From the NCBI GenBank assembly GCA_009377585.1, contig WHTS01000012.1, positions 4,867 to 68,866 of the forward strand: a stretch of DNA of 64,000 bases, written 5' to 3'. Position numbers and translations under genes: made by a program. Below the pieces are notes generated by a model. That model was not told the origin of the DNA, did not search any database, and saw only the letters and a list, made by a program, of their open reading frames with translations. This DNA comes from Betaproteobacteria bacterium. Lineage in GTDB: Bacteria; Pseudomonadota; Gammaproteobacteria; Burkholderiales; WYBJ01. Shown in pieces: positions 10,990 through 18,079 of the stretch. The first letter of the stretch is position 1; the number at the start of each line of letters is the position of its first letter.

Positions 10990-11068
10990 CTCATTGCGAT
11001 GCGTGGGTGAGTGGAGTGCTCCCCAGGATTGGGTGGTGTGGGCCGATATATCCAGTCCGATCCGATCG
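10990..11068 (+). other. Degenerate remnant of the 3' end of an Rhs/YD-repeat core (ends ...GRYIQSDPI)
   Basis: Translates to ...SPGLGGVGRYIQSDPI, the xGRYIxxDPIG core junction motif. It is truncated right after DPI and has an in-frame TGA upstream. A 29-nt stretch, 11040..11068, is 27/29 identical to 12378..12406. Confidence 0.6.
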
Positions 11069-11223
11069 CAGTACGCGCACCTTCGACCCCGCCTGCTCCA
11101 TTGCAGCGAGCAGGCGCCTCCACTACACTGGCCGCCAACAGGTCGTACGGCGCGATCCCGCCTGAGTGGCTCTTGGCTTGCGGCGGCGGTCGCGGATTCG
11201 ATGCTTACAGCCCGGAGGGGAAC

Positions 11224-12267
11224 ATGAACGCGCCTACCGCAACTTCCGCAGCCACGCGTCCCGCCGCTGTCCGTTCTGACGCGCCGAAGTTCGAGCTCGA
11301 TCCGAAGTGGCCCAAGCCGTTGCCCGAGGGCTGGATCACCGGCCAGCTGCCCTGCGTGTACGTCGATCACAATGACAGTATCCTGATCGTCAATCGCGGC
11401 AACATCACCGACGAAGAACGCGAGACCTGCATCCAGGCACCGCCGGTGATGATCTTCGATCAGGGCGGCAACCTCGTCCACGCCTGGGGCGACTGGGACG
11501 TGATGCCCTCGACGCCGCACAGCTGCGCGGTGGATCGCGACAACAACGTGTGGGTTTCCGCCAACGGCGACGGCATGGTGCAGAAGTACACCTACGACGG
11601 CAAGCTGCTGCTGCAGATCGGCCAGAAAGGGGTGTTCGACACGGCCGACGGCGGCAAGAAAGGCCCGGGGCTCAATGCGGCGCACGATCGCTTCAACAAG
11701 CCGGCCGGCATCGCCTGCGATCCGGCCAACGGCGACGTCTACTTCGCCGACGGCTACGGCAACCGCCGCGTGGTCGTGTTCGACAAGGACGGCAAATACC
11801 TGCGCCAGTGGGGACGGCAGGCGACGCCGGAAGAGATGGAAGCCGGCGTGGGCGGCGCGTTCGCCGAGGTGGTGCACAGCGTCGATATCGGCAACGACGG
11901 GCTGGTCTACGTGGGCGACCGCCAGGGAGACCGTGTCCAGGTGTTCGACAAGCAGGGCAACTTCAAGCGCAATATCTGGGTACGCACTGGCACGCCGCAG
12001 CTTCCCGACAAGCGCGGCACCGCGTGGTGGACGGCGTTCTCACGCGATGCGTCACAGAAATATCTGTACGTGATGAACGGGCGCAACGAGCAGGTGCACA
12101 TCCTCGATCGCGAGAGCGGGGAGATCCTGTCGAGCTTCGGCCGGCCGGGCCACCAGCTGGGCGATTTCACCCATGGGCACAGCATCGCGGTCGATACGCG
12201 CGGTAATCTGTACGTGGCGGAAACGAATTGGGGCCGGCGCGTGCACCGCTTCCGCCCGGCTGGCTAA
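11224..12267 (+). CDS. NHL-repeat beta-propeller protein (peptidyl-alpha-hydroxyglycine alpha-amidating lyase-like)
   Basis: ATG 11224 after GGAGGGG. Repeated NHL-type blades (VDRDNNVWVSANGDGMVQKYTYDGK, IACDPANGDVYFADGYGNRRVVVFDKDGK, VDIGNDGLVYVGDRQGDRVQVFDKQG, IAVDTRGNLYVAE). Confidence 0.8.
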   Translation: MNAPTATSAATRPAAVRSDAPKFELDPKWPKPLPEGWITGQLPCVYVDHNDSILIVNRGNITDEERETCIQAPPVMIFDQGGNLVHAWGDWDVMPSTPHSCAVDRDNNVWVSANGDGMVQKYTYDGKLLLQIGQKGVFDTADGGKKGPGLNAAHDRFNKPAGIACDPANGDVYFADGYGNRRVVVFDKDGKYLRQWGRQATPEEMEAGVGGAFAEVVHSVDIGNDGLVYVGDRQGDRVQVFDKQGNFKRNIWVRTGTPQLPDKRGTAWWTAFSRDASQKYLYVMNGRNEQVHILDRESGEILSSFGRPGHQLGDFTHGHSIAVDTRGNLYVAETNWGRRVHRFRPAG

Positions 12268-12363
12268 CACGCCACTTGCGCGCATCCGGCGTTGGGGCTG
12301 GCTGCGCAGCGTTCGGCGGTGTGATGCTCTACGCGTTTCGGGCTGCTGGCCGATACGTTGTAA

Positions 12364-12819
12364 GCAGCTGCCACCCTGGGCCGATATTTCCAATCCGATC
12401 CGATCGGGCTCGCGGGCGGCATCAATACCTATGCATATGTTCAAAGCAATCCGCTGACTTGGATCGACCCGGATGGTCGCCAGAGCAGAGAAGGAAGAGA
12501 ACGTCCGAGTGATCGAACCCCGCGAGACCGACCCGATGGGCCGTATGGTCCCATTGGTCAGGCAAGCACTGATCCTTCAAAAGTACCCACGCCCTCGGTG
12601 CCTTCGACGTCACTGGTTCCGACGACGTTCCAGGCATGCATGGCGAAAAATCTCGCCGACTGTCCACTCGCTGTAGTGGGTTCGTGCGCGCCAATCTGTG
12701 CAATTGCCGCTCCGACCGGACCTGGGGCATTAGGCTGCGCGATCGGATGCGCATGCACCATCAGCTACACGTGTTATGAGCTTAGCCGGATGCAGTGTAA
12801 CTACTTATCTGGCCGATAG
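12364..12819 (+). pseudogene. Orphan, 5'-truncated Rhs-family C-terminal cassette: core junction plus an unrecognised Cys-rich C-terminal tip
   Basis: The frame opens right after a TAA at 12361..12363 and has no plausible start. It encodes [38 protein letters not shown] (RHS repeat-associated core junction). This is followed by about 113 aa: an R/P/S/T-rich linker, then a hydrophobic tail with 9 Cys. Further degenerate core-like sequence lies in another frame at about 12320..12363. Local GC is clearly below the window average. Confidence 0.75.
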
Positions 12820-12838
12820 TCGTTCAGGGGACGACTCG

Positions 12839-13183
12839 ATGGTTACGATTCGAAAACGCGTTTACTTCAAGTGCCCGAAGTGTGGTCATGCGACGAGCTA
12901 TGCTCTTCAAATCGCCGGAGAGAAAAATAGCTACGTGTGCGAGCGCTGCAGTTCCATTTCGACCCCGAGGAACTATCTGCTCGCAAGCTTTGTTTACGGG
13001 GCGGTCCTCGGCGGGCTCATGGGCGTTATAGCCTATTGGATCTTTACTCGGCATCTGTTCACCGCATCGCCGGCGTTCGCGATATTGGCCGCCGTGCCTA
13101 TCGGGTTAATTCTTGCATGGCTTGTTGCGCCAATCCTGTCGCGAGTGTTTTACCGATGGACCTTGATAAAACCAGGTTCGTAG
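12839..13183 (+). CDS. Small membrane protein with N-terminal zinc ribbon; putative immunity protein for the adjacent Rhs tip
   Basis: ATG 12839 after AGGGGA, 20 nt after the toxin stop. CPKCGH...CERC zinc ribbon, then two or three hydrophobic helices (LLASFVYGAVLGGLMGVIAYWIF; AFAILAAVPIGLILAWLVAPIL). Low GC, like the toxin tip. Confidence 0.6.
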   Translation: MVTIRKRVYFKCPKCGHATSYALQIAGEKNSYVCERCSSISTPRNYLLASFVYGAVLGGLMGVIAYWIFTRHLFTASPAFAILAAVPIGLILAWLVAPILSRVFYRWTLIKPGS

Positions 13184-13288
13184 CGACGAAGGTCCAGTAA
13201 CGGGCAATCGCGGCGATGGACTGGCGTAATGCATCCTGAGTGGTCTCGTTGGGCGCCTGAGTTTTGCGAAGGACGAGGCAGTGCTGCG

Positions 13289-14218
13289 TCAAGGCTGCGA
13301 TTCAGCGTCATCGTCGCCCAAGAGCTTGCCCTGCTCGGGCCCGCGCTCATGGCGAATGACCTGCACGATGCTGTAGATGGCCTTGAGCTTGCCGAGCTCG
13401 ATCCACTGGCGGATCTGTAGCTTCACGTGCAGGATGTCGTTCTTACGGAAAGCCGCCTCGCCCGACTGCACGGCGTGCATGAAGGCTTCATCCTCGATCG
13501 CGACGTAAATCGTGCGGCTGCCATCGGAAACGCGCCACTTGTTCTCTTCCTCGAACGAAGGCGCGACGATGGTGACGCGCGTGTCGGTGACGGAGATCGT
13601 CTCGCCCTCGTGCTCGGTCGGGGCGACGAAGGCGGGGAAGTCGTCGCGCGTGACCTCGACGGTGTCTTTGCCCTTATGGCGGACCTTGAAGAGGTCGATG
13701 CCGCGGCTCTTGAGCGGCTCGACGATGCGCTCGACTGCTTTGCGGGCGCGCAGATTCTTGAACAGCTCCCACACGCGCCGGTCGACGCTGACGGGTTCGG
13801 CATCGCCTTCGAAGGTGATCTTCACCCGTTCGGTATGCTCGACGGTGACGGAGGTGGTTCTCCGACCGCGGCCATGCTTGATGAGCTGGAACAGGCCGAA
13901 CCCTGTGCCGAGGACACCGGAAATCCCGAGGATCTGGAAGAGGTTCGCCCAGGCGCTCGCCTCGCTGCTGCCGAAGAGACTGACGATCTGCTGATAGAAA
14001 GTGGCGAGCTCGAGGCTGACCTCGAAAGAACCCTGCTCGAAGCCGGCGCGCACGCGAAGCCGGATCTGCACCTCGGGCGGCAAGGCCAGGTCGTGGGCCT
14101 CGTCGAAGAGCTCGGCGAGCGCGAGCAGCGCCGGTGCCAGATCCTTCGCGTCAATCGCGCCTTCGGCGACATCCTCCCCGTCGTACACGATGCTGAAGCG
14201 TGCATCGTCTGCCGCCAT
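13289..14218 (-). CDS. Hypothetical protein, 309 aa, no recognisable domain (last gene of the XRE-ORF6N operon)
   Basis: Long ORF with good coding character, 27 nt downstream of the ORF6N gene. Acidic N-terminal region, one Gly-rich hydrophobic segment (ANLFQILGISGVLGTGFGLFQLI) followed by KHGRGRR, and a beta-rich charged C-terminal half. Confidence 0.7.
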   Translation of the reverse strand: MAADDARFSIVYDGEDVAEGAIDAKDLAPALLALAELFDEAHDLALPPEVQIRLRVRAGFEQGSFEVSLELATFYQQIVSLFGSSEASAWANLFQILGISGVLGTGFGLFQLIKHGRGRRTTSVTVEHTERVKITFEGDAEPVSVDRRVWELFKNLRARKAVERIVEPLKSRGIDLFKVRHKGKDTVEVTRDDFPAFVAPTEHEGETISVTDTRVTIVAPSFEEENKWRVSDGSRTIYVAIEDEAFMHAVQSGEAAFRKNDILHVKLQIRQWIELGKLKAIYSIVQVIRHERGPEQGKLLGDDDAESQP

Positions 14219-14245: not shown

Positions 14246-14800
14246 TTACTTCTCCTGCGGATGCACGAAGCCGATCGGCCGTCGCCTGGGTACGGGCTCG
14301 GGCGGGGCCATGAGCTTCTTGATCGCGTCGAGGATCTCGAAGATCGTCTCGTCCTGGGTGTCGATGCGCTGCTCAAGGGCGGTGAGCTTGCGAGCAAGGG
14401 CCTTGTGCGTGGCGAGGACCTCGCGCATCTGCACGAAGGCGCGCACGACGTAGACGCCCATCTCGATGGCGCGAGGGCTGTTGAGCACGTTGGCGGCCTG
14501 GATTGCGCCATGTTCGGTGAAGGCGAAGGGAGTGAAGCGCGGGTCGCGGTGCTTCTGGGAACCGGTCGCAATTTGCGACCGGTTCAGCGTATCGAGCTCG
14601 GCACGGGTGAGCCGGAACATGAAGTCCTCGGGGAAGCGCTCGATGTTGCGCTTCACCTGCTCGTTGAGCCGTCGAGTTTCAACGCCATAGAGTGACGCGA
14701 GGTCGGCATCGAGGATGACCTTGTGGGCGCGTACGAGAAGGATGCGGCTGGTGATGGCCTCGACGGCGATCGCGACCGATGCTCGCTTCGATCCCGCCAT
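14246..14800 (-). CDS. ORF6N (KilA-N-like) DNA-binding domain protein with C-terminal coiled coil
   Basis: ILLVRAHKVILDADLASLYGVETRRLNEQVKRNIERFPEDFMFRLT...FTEHGAIQAANVLNS is the ORF6N pattern seen in phage and mobile-element proteins. 5-nt gap to the upstream XRE gene. Confidence 0.85.
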   Translation of the reverse strand: MAGSKRASVAIAVEAITSRILLVRAHKVILDADLASLYGVETRRLNEQVKRNIERFPEDFMFRLTRAELDTLNRSQIATGSQKHRDPRFTPFAFTEHGAIQAANVLNSPRAIEMGVYVVRAFVQMREVLATHKALARKLTALEQRIDTQDETIFEILDAIKKLMAPPEPVPRRRPIGFVHPQEK

Positions 14801-14805
14801 GGGTC

Positions 14806-15198
14806 TCAGTGGCTCGTGCCTGCGAGCACGTCTTCGAGCATCTGAATGACGAGCGGCTGCTTGGCGCGGGGAAGCTGCGCGATGCGCTCCATCTGCTGCT
14901 GGAGCTTCGGTGCCGGCCCGCGTTTACCGGCCGCGCGCACGGGCTCGCCGAGGAGCTCTTCCACACCGACGTGGAGCGTGCGCGCCATTTGCACGACCAT
15001 CGACACTGGCGGGCGGGCGCGTCCCACCGCGTATTGGGGCAAGCGTTTGCTGGGCGATGCCGAGCTCGTCGGCGAGCGCCTGCTGCGACAGACCCTGGAC
15101 TTGCGTGCGGCGGCGAGCCGCGCGCCCAGGTCCTTGAAGAACTGCTGTTCCCCGGGGTTCATGGAAGGCGCTGCTGCAAGCTGCGAGGCGCTCAGCAT
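14806..15198 (-). pseudogene. XRE-family HTH regulator interrupted by two compensating 1-nt frameshifts
   Basis: Frame A gives MNPGEQQFFKDLGARLAAARKS... and ...QYAVGRARPPVSMVVQMARTLHVGVEELLGEP...KRGPAPKLQQQMERIAQLP. The HTH core QGLSQQALADELGIAQQTLA is encoded only in another frame, between the homopolymer sites 15097..15098 and 15036..15039. Confidence 0.7.
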
Positions 15199-15228
15199 AA
15201 GGCCGTGTCCGAGGAGGATGACCGACTC

Positions 15229-15245
15229 TACTCACAATGTGAGTA
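15229..15245. promoter_or_regulatory. Perfect palindrome TACTCACA-A-TGTGAGTA, candidate operator upstream of the XRE-ORF6N operon
   Basis: 8-bp inverted arms, 31 nt upstream of the first ATG (15198) of the XRE gene, within a lower-GC intergenic region. Confidence 0.5.
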
Positions 15246-15506
15246 ACTATATCGCAGAGCGATTGGTACTCAAAACCCTTTCGACAGCGTGCCAGGTCGG
15301 CGGCGAAACCGCACGAGACGGAGTGTGGCGCGGATTCGATCGTTAATCGCCGAAACGCATCTCTTGCCGCTTGCCGCCGGCGTTGCTCTTTGCTGGTTAA
15401 AGCGATCCTGGCCGAGTGCGCCTTCATTCTCGAGCTGCAAGCAACGGATGAATCAAGCAAAGTAGCCTCGACTACGACGCAAGCATGTCGGGTCAACTAT
15501 AGAGTA

Positions 15507-16016
15507 TCAGCGCTGCCTGCTGTGAGCGGGCGGTGTTGTATCAGGCGGCGTAATCATGCCTGCTCGCGCCGCGAACTTCTTGGCGGTGGGGTGATAGACG
15601 TAAGGCTGGTCGTCGACGAGCGCAAGAAATTCCGCGCGTGCCTGCACCGCGCGCTCGAAGGCGCCGCGTTCGCCGTACTTGCACACCGCGAAAGTCCTTG
15701 TTATTTGCTTACCGTCAGGACGTTTGAGCCGCGCCTGCCACGAACCCTGAGGCTGATTGTATGGGCGGATGAAGTGCACGCCGGGCACGCCGCTGGTATT
15801 GGACGAGCGAACGAGCTGATGAAATTCGCGCTTCGCGAGCGTGCGGGTTCGGGCGAGCACCCGATCGCGCCAGGCGATAGCGGCGGCCAGGGCCTTCTTC
15901 GAGCCCCCGCATCGAAGATCGTAGAAGCTCTTGTAGTAGGTCTTGCCGCGCCGGCGGATCGCGACCGCCCAACACCAGACGCTGGGTTTGGCTTGGATAC
16001 GGCTGATGGCGTACAT
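15507..16016 (-). CDS. AP2/ERF-type DNA-binding domain protein (two AP2-like repeats)
   Basis: Track ORF 15507..16220(-) trimmed to ATG 16016. Motifs WCWAVAIRRRGKTYYKSF and SGVPGVHFIRPYNQPQGSWQARLKRPDGKQITRTFAVCKYGERGAFERAVQAR are typical of bacterial AP2 domains. Confidence 0.7.
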   Translation of the reverse strand: MYAISRIQAKPSVWCWAVAIRRRGKTYYKSFYDLRCGGSKKALAAAIAWRDRVLARTRTLAKREFHQLVRSSNTSGVPGVHFIRPYNQPQGSWQARLKRPDGKQITRTFAVCKYGERGAFERAVQARAEFLALVDDQPYVYHPTAKKFAARAGMITPPDTTPPAHSRQR

Positions 16017-16054
16017 AACGATGCCGAACAGAATGGATCGGCTACACTCTCGCT

Positions 16055-18079
16055 TCAGTTGCCGGTTCGCGGGACGCGCTCCTCGAACTCGCGTTCGAAC
16101 ACGTTCGCATCGCCTTCGTAGGCTGCGAGCTTCCCGCGGATGACGAACTCCCGCTTGGTGCACGAGACCTGCGTCCGACTCTGCGTGCGGATGCGCCAGT
16201 CCCCGCGCTCGAACTCCCACGTCCAGTCCACTCTAGCGGTCGCGGACAGCGGATCGTCCTCGACCACGCAATAACGCTCGGTCGAGCGCGCTTCCGCGAT
16301 CAGATCGATCTCGTCGTAACGGTTGCGCCCGCTCGTATCGTGCACCTCGACCACGGTCAAACCCTTGCCTAGATCGGTCGTGATGACGCGATTGCGGCTG
16401 CCGGGCGTGAGCGCCGTGCGCGCGACCGGGGCAGCGGATTCCGGCGCCTTGAAGCGCGACAGTTTGCCGTCGGCGCGCGAGGCTGGCCGAATCGGCAGCT
16501 CGAGCGCGCTCTTTCCGGTGACGAGCGTGAGCGTTACCGGCTCGGGCGAAGGCCACACGAGTGGCCAATACGTGGTCGAGAGCGCGACCCGGATGCGGTG
16601 GCCCTTGGCGAACGAGTAGGCGCAGTCGATCAGATCGAAGCGCACCGTGTACTGCTTGCCCGGCGTGAGCCGGGCCACCTTGTCGGCGCCTTCACGATGC
16701 GTGAGGTTGAAGGTCTGGTACGTGACGCGAGTGGATGCGCCGTCGGGCGCGACATCGCACACGCGCACGCACACGAACGCGACCGGCCGATCGACCGAGA
16801 ACGTGAGCGTGACTGCGGGGGTGCCGAGGATCTCGAGATTCTTGCGCAGCCGCGCGCTGTCGAAGCAGATCGACTGGCCGTCGTCGGCGCGCTGATCGCC
16901 GGGAAGCTCCGGACTGGGCCCGTGCTGGAACCAGGGCATGAGCTCGCCGGCGCCAAGGCCGAGCGTCTGCGGCGATTTCCACGCAAGCTTGGCCGAGCGC
17001 CCGGCGCGTGCGTCGAGCGTGCCGCCGGCATTCATGAAAAAACGCTGTGGCCTGATGCGCGGGCTCGGCCATTGCGCTTCGCTCACCCAGCGCCCGGGCG
17101 ATTCGGCATAGAAGCTCTTGGCGGGCACCGAGCGCGGCATCCAGGCGATGAGTTTGGGATCGCGCGTGACGCCCGTGTCCCGGCCGCGCATCCAGTGGTC
17201 GTACCAGCGCAGCGCTTCCTGCAGGAAACCGATCGCGGGCCCGGGCATGCCGAGGTGCCCGTAACGATGGCCCCATGGCCCGATGAGGCCTTTGCACGGC
17301 GCCTCGAGCTTGCTCAGCGATTCGCTCACCGCCCCGACGTAGGCCCCGTCGGCCCAGCCGCTCACGGCGAAGAACGGCACCTTGATGCGTGCGTGGTCGA
17401 TCGCGCGGCTGCGCCAGTACTTGTCGAACCTCTGGTGCTTCAGCGCCGAGATGATCTGCGGCGTGTTGTTCTCCACGCGCGCCATCCACATTTCGCGCCA
17501 GCGGCTGCCGACCAGCGCCGGATCGGGTGGCCGCGACTTGTAGCCGAACACCTGGCTGGACCAGCGGATCGCTCGCAGGAGAAAACATCCGCCGCGATAG
17601 ACCTGACTGTAGCGAAAACGGTCGGGTGCATACGACTGCGCGATCACGGCCTTGAGCTGCGGCGGCGCGCGAAACGCCGTCTGTATGCCCTGAAAGCCGC
17701 CCCACGATATCCCGAACATGCCGACCTGGCCATCGCTCCATGGCTGTTGCGCGATCCAAGCGAGCACCTGCACGGTGTCTTCGGATTCGTCGCTCGTGGC
17801 GAACACGCCCTGGATGCCGTCGGAATCACCCGAGCCGCGAATGTCCACGCGCATCGTGGCATAGCCGTGGCCGGCGAAGTAGCGGTGATGCATGGCATCG
17901 CGCGGCGCGTAGATGTCACGCTTGCGATACGGAATGACCTCGATGATGGTCGGCACGCGCTGCGTCGATACGATATCGGGCAGCCACAGCTTGGCGGCCA
18001 GCCGCACCCCGTCGGGCATTGGAATCCAGCAATCTTCGGTTTCGGTGTACTTGTGGGGGAAGCGGGTGAGGGTTTTCAA
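16055..18079 (-). CDS. CocE/NonD-family (S15, X-Pro dipeptidyl-peptidase-like) alpha/beta hydrolase
   Basis: 674 aa. Motifs GYATMRVDIRGSGDSDG, the nucleophile elbow GMFGISWGG, and a C-terminal jelly-roll domain. TTG start. Confidence 0.88.
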   Translation of the reverse strand: MKTLTRFPHKYTETEDCWIPMPDGVRLAAKLWLPDIVSTQRVPTIIEVIPYRKRDIYAPRDAMHHRYFAGHGYATMRVDIRGSGDSDGIQGVFATSDESEDTVQVLAWIAQQPWSDGQVGMFGISWGGFQGIQTAFRAPPQLKAVIAQSYAPDRFRYSQVYRGGCFLLRAIRWSSQVFGYKSRPPDPALVGSRWREMWMARVENNTPQIISALKHQRFDKYWRSRAIDHARIKVPFFAVSGWADGAYVGAVSESLSKLEAPCKGLIGPWGHRYGHLGMPGPAIGFLQEALRWYDHWMRGRDTGVTRDPKLIAWMPRSVPAKSFYAESPGRWVSEAQWPSPRIRPQRFFMNAGGTLDARAGRSAKLAWKSPQTLGLGAGELMPWFQHGPSPELPGDQRADDGQSICFDSARLRKNLEILGTPAVTLTFSVDRPVAFVCVRVCDVAPDGASTRVTYQTFNLTHREGADKVARLTPGKQYTVRFDLIDCAYSFAKGHRIRVALSTTYWPLVWPSPEPVTLTLVTGKSALELPIRPASRADGKLSRFKAPESAAPVARTALTPGSRNRVITTDLGKGLTVVEVHDTSGRNRYDEIDLIAEARSTERYCVVEDDPLSATARVDWTWEFERGDWRIRTQSRTQVSCTKREFVIRGKLAAYEGDANVFEREFEERVPRTGN

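Follow-up and report, generated by a model that had tools for sequence, protein, structure and literature searches.

A rare cysteine-rich Rhs tip family, with a putative membrane-acting role and a linked two-transmembrane partner, found in an orphan cassette

Results

An orphan Rhs cassette and the gene behind it

The window analyzed here is the whole 64,000-nucleotide stretch of contig WHTS01000012.1 from the Betaproteobacteria bacterium assembly GCA_009377585.1, and its subject is a short Rhs-derived open reading frame (ORF) at 12364-12816 (stop 12817-12819), together with the gene that follows it. The frame is intact over 152 codons, begins directly after a TAA stop and encodes, in order, the residual end of an Rhs-associated core, a linker and a cysteine-rich C-terminal tip; the downstream gene is referred to below as the partner (Table 1). 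The locus can be read with high confidence as a solitary, 5'-truncated Rhs/YD polymorphic toxin cassette of the orphan type with its cognate immunity gene, and the tip appears from the searches described below to found a rare, uncatalogued family.

Residues 4-38 of the frame match positions 41-75 of the 76 in TIGR03696 (Rhs_assc_core, NCBIfam; E 1.8e-12, 47.6 bits against a cutoff of 32.5 bits), and the motifs SDPIG and IDPDG both lie within this residual core. By analogy with D1141 and D1164 of Tse5 (PMC10684867), the two aspartates may be the residues of autoproteolysis. The cleavage junction (12475-12480) reads DPDG-R in the subgroup of the window and its relatives P0004 and P0005, and DPxG-L in all other family members. 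Homology with P0005 starts at LGRY, at about 12373, which gives about 105 bp of core. When P0005 and the Rhs protein of locus L025 were used as tblastn queries, the sole matching region in the 64 kb was 12379-12477/12816, and no other Rhs sequence, including a full-length rhs gene for recombination, was found in the window with these two queries. The linker is probably disordered, and its sequence and length (14-47 residues) differ among family members.

The NHL-repeat gene on the upstream side (11011-12267) shares the frame of the cassette, with three in-frame stops between them (at 12265, 12322 and 12361); on account of these stops and of a change in guanine-cytosine (GC) content at about 12300, read-through into the cassette was rejected. 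Neither the junction nor the linker has a start codon, because the first ATG, GTG or TTG in frame is the GTG at 12598. This GTG is probably unused. No purine-rich, Shine-Dalgarno (SD)-like sequence is seen before it on reading the sequence, and a promoter scan of 12000-13500 returned no sigma-70-like promoter. Scans with Rfam and for tRNAs, promoters, terminators and repeats returned no RNA element, att-like repeat or expression signal at the cassette borders. The minus-strand ORFs 12422-12754 and 12558-12761, which overlap the tip, were not accepted as coding, since it is the plus-strand frame that is conserved with a low ratio of nonsynonymous to synonymous substitution (dN/dS).

An earlier note on this DNA, made from the letters alone, had described an orphan Rhs C-terminal cassette that follows the TAA at 12361 and lacks a start codon. 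Both descriptions are borne out by the last ~35 core codons, the start of homology at LGRY, the three stops, the position of the first start-like codon and the lack of other Rhs sequence in the 64 kb. The tip peptide quoted in that note is exact in its letters and in its nine cysteines, but ends four residues early, leaving out the LSGR that follows CNY. By exact look-up, the tip ORF and the partner ORF are both absent from a collection of 15 billion proteins in which the neighbors MPZ43021, MPZ43026 and MPZ43027 are present; public annotation of the source metagenome-assembled genome (MAG; locus tags GEV05_, proteins MPZ43021-MPZ43027) apparently passed over both.

Table 1. Features of the cassette and its partner gene, in window coordinates.
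Feature	Position	Strand	Basis or remark
TAA stop closing the upstream frame, left edge of the orphan frame	12361..12363	+	read from sequence
Residual 3' end of Rhs-associated core, ~35 codons, with both DPxG motifs	12373..12477	+	TIGR03696 match
Basic Pro/Ser/Thr-rich linker, 47 residues	12478..12618	+	grand average of hydropathy (GRAVY) -1.41
GTG, first and only start-like codon in the cassette frame	12598..12600	+	8 codons ahead of the tip; ORF 12598-12819
Cys-rich tip domain, 66 residues plus stop	12619..12819	+	alignment A1, AlphaFold2, relatives, dN/dS
Apolar hairpin core, candidate membrane-embedded segment	12661..12777	+	tip residues 15-53
AGGGGA, SD-like, 7 nt ahead of the partner ATG	12826..12831	+	read from sequence
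Partner gene, putative cognate immunity protein, 114 residues	12839..13183	+	ATG 19 nt after the tip stop

A rare family of Rhs tips

The tip gave no match in Pfam, NCBIfam, PADLOC or the PDB sequences, even at E<=10, either with its own sequence as query or with the family profile (alignment A1); the PDB sequence library includes the Tse5 shell entry 8cp6 (8cp6_B) and other Rhs structures. Its placement outside every named toxin family, already proposed in the earlier note, is thus upheld. When 1.84 billion cluster representatives were searched exhaustively with HMMER, 10 true relatives of the tip were recovered (P0004-P0013, E 1.5e-29 to 7e-5). With a word-indexed protein search, the tip alone returned nothing and profile A1 returned two members; most carriers were probably missed because other Rhs tips stand for the 90% clusters that contain them. 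Loci L014-L021 came from a scan of JGI metagenomes with degenerate patterns, and two more (L010 and L011) were found on contigs reached through homologs of the downstream ORF. Two candidates were rejected as spurious, one a tandem-repeat protein (P0014) and the other a short low-complexity match (L022). GTDB representative genomes gave no match to tip patterns derived from the window, the contig scan matching the Rhs-core part alone, so that the source species has no representative among them, and a scan of viral contigs gave no tip relatives. The family is very rare: about 20 loci were found against about 15 billion proteins, and every one of them comes from an environmental metagenome or MAG, of soil, sediment or groundwater type.

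In every relative (e.g. P0004-P0013 and L013-L021) the tip is the extreme C-terminus, placed after an Rhs-core junction and a variable linker, and so it recurs behind Rhs cores other than that of the window. A lack of conservation in any other Rhs, which the earlier note had named among the grounds for its refutation, therefore does not hold. Pairwise dN/dS over the 66 tip codons is 0.03-0.22 for pairs of family members other than the window copy with unsaturated dS, and the tip is a genuine protein domain under purifying selection. The closest relative, P0005 (JGI 3300043331), is 94% identical to the window. P0005 is without nine tip residues (ACTISYTCY), with which C46 and C52 are gone.

Mirrored cysteines and a predicted hairpin

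All nine cysteines, together with G36, G43 and E54, are invariant in the 10-sequence alignment A1, where identity falls as low as 36%; T33 and G34 are almost invariant. The cysteines are found at tip positions 7, 15, 23 and 27 on one side and 40, 44, 46, 52 and 60 on the other side of a TGPG turn, about which they are mirror-symmetric, with four pairs whose positions sum to 67 (7/60, 15/52, 23/44 and 27/40). In simulations with nine random positions this symmetry has P~0.001-0.003, in a test devised after the pattern had been noticed. A Cx3C-Xn-Cx3C arrangement is included in the pattern, with C23x3C27 and C40x3C44 on either side of the turn. The four most distant members (P0010-P0013) carry two extra cysteines, gained together, at positions 3 and 64, which also sum to 67. 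This joint gain, a covariation of presence and absence, is the best evidence that the mirrored cysteines are partners.

AlphaFold2, given an alignment of 10 sequences only, predicts a helix at 4-30, the TGPG loop and a second helix at 35-64, with a mean predicted local distance difference test (pLDDT) score of 77.3. In a Foldseek comparison of the predicted tip with the PDB no hit was significant (the best, TatC, had E 9.2), since a hairpin of two helices has little power to discriminate. Across the 39 consecutive alignment columns at positions 15-53 there is one charged residue in about 390 cells, and residues 15-52 have a GRAVY of +1.38. This core is rich in Ala, Gly and Cys, with small-residue faces at i,i+4. 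On either side of it, residues 4-14 and 54-66 form charged, amphipathic segments.

The partner gene

The partner has an N-terminal CPxC...CxxC zinc ribbon (residues 12-37; matches to zinc-ribbon library models are below cutoffs) followed by two transmembrane (TM) helices at about 47-69 and 78-100. Its homologs are 96, 70 and 65% identical, the first of these being P0001. Ten residues are invariant in the partner alignment A2 (C12, C15, C34, C37, G54, G58, P78, W94, P98 and W107), with a GxxxG motif in the first TM helix. The frame is intact over 114 codons, and the window copy keeps the ATG, the SD-like AGGGGA and every invariant residue. An AlphaFold2 model from a four-row alignment, used for secondary structure at a pLDDT of only 59, has three strands plus helices at 44-73 and 78-110. 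Charge distribution and this low-confidence model together suggest an N-in/C-in topology with about eight residues in the periplasm.

A zinc-ribbon plus 2-TM ORF follows the tip in 16 of 16 loci with readable downstream DNA (the window, L010-L021, L023, L025 and L026), a count that leaves out P0012, for which there is no DNA, and L024, which meets the contig end. The start of the partner ranges from an overlap of 4 nt with the tip frame to 28 nt after the tip stop. A gene is also called at the partner spot on the P0001 and P0005 contigs (from annotation, with no DNA). This adjacency is kept where the tips are only ~40% identical (L025 and L026), and the synteny of tip and partner is obligate in the loci covered. 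The identities of the two proteins rise and fall together (Spearman 0.93), as linked genes would do in any case, but this shows that the pair is never reshuffled. Such linkage is the signature of a toxin-immunity pair, and the partner is most likely the antidote of the tip, with a predicted protective function.

Two partner copies are damaged: in L018 (656-898) the whole zinc ribbon is lost by an internal deletion, and in L014 (10160-10250) the protein is cut off after 26 residues. These alleles, like the P0005 tip, may be either natural inactivations or assembly artifacts.

Carriers of the tip

A TEN_YD-shell match is found in P0005 and in the 635-residue protein encoded directly before P0001 (JGI 3300056388). 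Locus L025 is a classical array, in which a main YD-Rhs with another tip is followed by an immunity-like TM ORF, an orphan tip of the window type and its partner. Other carriers have no YD shell: L021 (2-1231) joins Big_7, core and tip, and P0007 (L013 236-1084) joins Golvesin_C, core and tip. The tip is also found on a small stand-alone protein, P0008 (174 residues), which has an apparent Sec signal, a degenerate core and the tip, with the partner gene next to it; its start, MNKAVITTLILVLASFCNIASA, is Sec-signal-like on inspection.

The shell-less layout comprises a signal peptide, CBM96/DNRLRE, two Big_7 immunoglobulin (Ig) domains or Golvesin_C, an Rhs-associated core of about 76 residues and the tip. 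In L014 (266-2065) there is also a shell-less Rhs-core protein with a different toxin tip.

Discussion

Proposed mode of action

On balance, and by analogy with characterized effectors, we favor the interpretation that these proteins are a new family of membrane-acting Rhs tips with a cognate 2-TM immunity protein. What has been shown is the anatomy of the cassette, the conservation of the family, the invariance and symmetry of its cysteines, purifying selection and the synteny of tip and partner; disulfides, membrane insertion, depolarization and the immunity mechanism are proposed. The nearest precedent is Tse5-CT, a non-enzymatic Rhs C-terminal (CT) tip that depolarizes cells and whose immunity protein Tsi5 has two predicted TM regions (PMC9637101). 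Cleavage of the Tse5 CT is essential for toxicity, and the CT acts preferentially from the periplasmic side (PMC10684867). Furthermore, an effector usually acts where its immunity protein is located (PMC12669606), and the periplasmic effectors Ssp2 and Ssp4 require DsbA in the target cell (PMC5792426).

In an intact carrier, the aspartyl-protease motif of the core (SDPIG...IDPDG) would cut at the DPxG junction and free the linker and tip. The tip would then fold as an alpha-helical hairpin, with the mirrored cysteine pairs (four in the window copy and five in the distant members) keeping its arms in register. The pairs would most likely be disulfides formed in an oxidizing periplasm, either by the Dsb machinery of the target after delivery by a type VI secretion system (T6SS), or in the producer for carriers exported by Sec. 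The charge-free, turn-proximal half (about 18 residues per arm, with Ala/Gly/Cys small-xxx-small faces) would enter the cytoplasmic membrane from the periplasmic side, and the inserted hairpin, singly or in oligomeric form, would dissipate the membrane potential. The partner, with its predicted cytoplasmic zinc ribbon and a 2-TM hairpin carrying the invariant GxxxG, may neutralize the toxin in the bilayer by helix-helix binding; as it would expose almost nothing to the periplasm, neutralization must on this topology occur within the bilayer. The earlier note had preferred a membrane-inserting peptide, and that reading is the best supported one here, by inference from the near charge-free 39-column core, the predicted hairpin and the always-adjacent 2-TM partner.

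A more elaborate form of this mechanism is doubtful in its entirety. It would make the tip a minimal (~60-residue) TM alpha-hairpin warhead with a disulfide ladder of four to five rungs, which either travels reduced and unfolded within an Rhs shell or leaves the cell via Sec, turns toxic only once the Dsb system of the victim has oxidized it, and is disarmed in the bilayer by the zinc-ribbon/2-TM partner, with C46 linking hairpins into a covalent, pore-forming dimer.

Several points weigh against the membrane-acting interpretation or parts of it. The function of the tip is assigned by analogy, with no homology to any characterized toxin, and the carriers are heterogeneous (YD-shell proteins, Ig and Golvesin fusions, a Sec-signal mini-protein), which blurs the delivery route. 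If a T6SS-borne Rhs protein delivers the tip to the cytoplasm, the disulfides would not form. C46 is invariant but has no mirror partner, and the symmetry test was made after the fact. On an ideal helix, the 8-residue spacing of the cysteines turns by about 80 degrees per step, so that a continuous four-rung ladder would need supercoiling or proline kinks. As much can be said for a disulfide ladder of mirrored cysteines as against it, its support being the mirror symmetry and the co-gained fifth pair. The apolar arms, at about 18 residues each, are marginal for spanning a bilayer, and the hairpin model itself comes from a shallow alignment. For the pairing with the partner, P0012 is a gap in the adjacency count, and the identities of tip and partner co-vary (Spearman 0.93) to an extent that would be expected for any two linked genes. 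Finally, the lack of rhs genes applies to the 64-kb window and not to the rest of the source genome, where rhs and T6SS genes may lie.

Alternative explanations and the state of the window copy

The alternative that survives best, while still unlikely, is that the tip is a receptor-targeting peptide, in which case the hairpin, instead of perforating lipid on its own, would bind a specific inner-membrane protein and jam or open it, and the 2-TM partner would protect by joining the complex. Class II bacteriocins act via man-PTS, UppP or RseP. The charge-free core, the hairpin and a membrane partner with little periplasmic exposure fit this explanation equally well, the strict invariance of E54, G36 and G43 suits a specific protein interface, and a cytoplasmic zinc ribbon in the partner would be needless for simple pore blocking. 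However, no candidate receptor is evident, the family is spread over varied, mostly unidentified soil and sediment bacteria, and Tse5-CT, the nearest Rhs precedent, inserts spontaneously into pure lipid (PMC9637101).

It is less probable still that the cassette and partner are a pure relic, decaying and functionless, of an rhs locus or a mobile element that has been deleted or displaced. Decay would account for the missing start codon and promoter-like site, the ~105 bp of core, the absence of rhs from the 64 kb, the failure of both ORFs to be called as proteins, the damaged copies elsewhere (the P0005 tip and the L018 and L014 partners) and the frameshifted look of a neighboring XRE-like ORF. 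On the other hand, neither frame is broken over its 152 or 114 codons, the partner still has its ATG, AGGGGA, all invariant residues and 96% identity to P0001, and orphan immunity genes are known to be kept for protection (PMC10539506). This explanation also concerns the state of the window copy rather than the function of the family, and it overlaps with the one favored here.

For the window copy, the toxin part is probably silent, because it lacks both a start codon and a promoter-like site and the 64 kb show no rhs gene. The earlier note had proposed expression by recombination into a full rhs gene; the start codon is indeed absent, but reactivation in this way is doubtful because the core homology is only ~105 bp and no rhs gene is in view. 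The partner, with its own ATG and SD-like sequence, may be kept as an orphan immunity gene against neighbors armed with the window-type toxin, in line with the retention of orphan immunity genes for protection (PMC10539506). Such retention explains the window copy most economically, and the unit kept by selection at this locus is most likely the downstream immunity gene, which the earlier note had mentioned only in passing. For the source genome the conclusion is a modest one: a small, horizontally acquired island holds a silent toxin relic and an orphan immunity gene that is probably functional.

A metal-binding or redox-active hairpin, in which the mirrored cysteines are ligands of Zn, Cu(I) or an Fe-S cluster instead of disulfide partners and which acts in the reducing cytoplasm (e.g. 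by metal sequestration or redox damage), is improbable. Reduced twin-Cx3C proteins such as small Tims bind Zn. The 9-11 invariant cysteines, including twin Cx3C and CxC, would suit such a role, some Rhs toxins act in the cytoplasm, and one member matches Metallothio_5 (E=10) and another TIL (E=2.2), both uninformative. However, cysteines 8 residues apart on a helix are too spread for compact metal sites, there are no His, Asp or Glu co-ligands except E54, and the 39-column charge-free segment and 2-TM partner are hard to fit to a soluble cytoplasmic metal binder.

An internally expressed toxin-antitoxin (TA)-like module, in which a 73-residue peptide from GTG 12598 is made together with the partner, is very improbable: the GTG lies 8 codons ahead of the tip, P0008 shows that the tip can be a small stand-alone protein, and orphan Rhs elements, as reported for Salmonella, can work as type II TA modules (PMC7043789), but no SD-like sequence precedes 12598 and no promoter-like site was found, a cytoplasmic peptide would lack a P0008-type signal peptide, and the GTG is not kept as a start, encoding V in the window and P0005 and varying in others.

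Comparison with known systems

Polymorphic Rhs orphan cassettes with immunity genes are already known, as are membrane-active Rhs tips; new here are the tip family, its invariant mirrored-cysteine hairpin design and a dedicated zinc-ribbon/2-TM partner family. The earlier note had set the tip apart from the usual enzymatic Rhs tips, but Tse5-CT (PMC9637101) and Tox-WTIP (PMC3482391) are precedents that make it less exceptional than was implied.

The tip resembles Tse5-CT of Pseudomonas aeruginosa in being a hydrophobic, non-enzymatic tip that would be freed at the DPxG junction of an Rhs core, and the partner resembles Tsi5, a small inner-membrane immunity protein with two TM segments encoded immediately downstream. 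Depolarization from the periplasmic side has been shown for Tse5 and would extend to the tip by inference. In contrast to this likeness, neither the tip nor profile A1 matches a PDB sequence at E<=10, in a library that holds the shell chain 8cp6_B and in which the presence of the CT chain is unconfirmed. Tse5-CT has 149 residues with several predicted TM and amphipathic helices, whereas the tip has 66 residues, a single hairpin and nine invariant cysteines; the Tse5 paper (PMC10684867) makes no mention of a role for cysteine. Unlike the partner, Tsi5 is not described with a zinc ribbon.

Tox-WTIP is a predicted two-helix, pore-forming tip on RHS-repeat and other proteobacterial polymorphic toxins (Zhang et al. 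2012, PMC3482391), and is similar to the tip in this respect. However, its defining motifs, RxxR in helix 1 and Wx[ST]IP in helix 2, are absent, the tip and the family consensus having neither Trp nor RxxR. Also, no Pfam model matches the tip at E<=10, and Tox-WTIP is not described as cysteine-rich.

Mitochondrial small Tims are helical hairpins with twin Cx3C motifs. Plant alpha-hairpinins (Cx3C-Xn-Cx3C), which are antimicrobial, share with the tip a helix-loop-helix fold with cysteines at mirror positions on facing helices (PMC11591084, PMC7191063). Alpha-hairpinins and small Tims differ from the tip in being soluble and charged with four cysteines, whereas the tip has 9-11 cysteines (Cx7Cx7Cx3C...Cx3CxCx5Cx7C), a charge-free core and a place as Rhs cargo. 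There is no Pfam or PDB sequence similarity that would point to common ancestry, and with a best Foldseek E of 9.2 the likeness is one of analogy only.

The Serratia T6SS pairs Ssp4/Sip4 and Ssp6/Sip6 are similar in that periplasm-acting, non-lytic membrane effectors are matched with integral-membrane immunity proteins (PMC12669606). The need of Ssp4 for DsbA in the target (PMC5792426) is a precedent for the activation of an incoming effector by the disulfide machinery of the target. Ssp4 is however much larger (13 helices plus a sheet are predicted), unrelated in sequence and not Rhs cargo, and Sip4 differs from the partner by its four TM helices and by lacking a zinc ribbon. Compared with class II bacteriocins, the window copy has no leader or start, P0008 has a Sec-like start with the partner gene next to it, and bacteriocin Pfam models do not match the tip.

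Orphan rhs-CT/immunity cassettes of Enterobacteria (E. coli, Salmonella and Serratia), as described in PMC3150448, PMC7043789 and PMC10539506, are like the window cassette in having a start-less 3' end of the core, a divergent tip, an immunity gene and a lower GC content. The window orphan differs from these in being solitary, with ~35 core codons, and in lying beside candidate phage-defense genes and a mobile-element remnant instead of an rhs locus.

Most characterized Rhs, CdiA and T6SS warheads are enzymes, with few that are membrane-active (Tse5, Tox-WTIP, Ssp4/Ssp6 and Tse4). The family would add a very small warhead built on four to five mirrored cysteine pairs, with no charges in the half next to the turn, a single invariant Glu and a Cys that has no mirror partner, along with a matching immunity protein of 114 residues. 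As the tip is short enough to synthesize, it would open target-disulfide activation, two-helix depolarization and in-bilayer immunity to test. The family is notable to specialists and easy to test, and is not paradigm-changing.

Genomic neighborhood

The GC content of the cassette is 53-59%, against 64-69% in the flanks, and the cassette lies in a small low-GC, horizontally acquired island of defense type. The locus is seen as a toxin-immunity relic in such an island because two candidate defense genes lie directly to its right. One, at 13289-14218 on the minus strand, encodes a 309-residue protein annotated as hypothetical (MPZ43026) that matches the PADLOC candidate family PDC-S42 (E 2e-84); the other, at 14246-14800 on the minus strand, encodes an ORF6N-domain protein (MPZ43027) that matches the candidate PDC-S05 (E 4e-47).

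Next to these is the XRE-like ORF (14806-15198, minus strand), 48% identical (E 5e-34) to an XRE-like ORF in L014. The window copy is unaligned across the helix-turn-helix region (residues ~35-57), and appears from this to be frameshifted. In L014 (4036-8705) the XRE-like ORF is found with two further genes, one primase/helicase-like (1015 residues) and one tyrosine-integrase-like, a short way upstream of the orphan tip. In L016 (1529-2727) a similar XRE-like ORF lies by a primase-like gene, truncated after ~135 residues, which continues into the orphan core and tip in another frame. The cassette seems to travel with, or to insert beside, an XRE/primase/integrase mobile element. Further right, a 237-residue ORF (15507-16220, minus strand) has the look, on inspection only, of an AP2/integrase-type DNA-binding protein, and around 15200-15800 the GC content drops to 0.57-0.60, at the right edge of the low-GC island.

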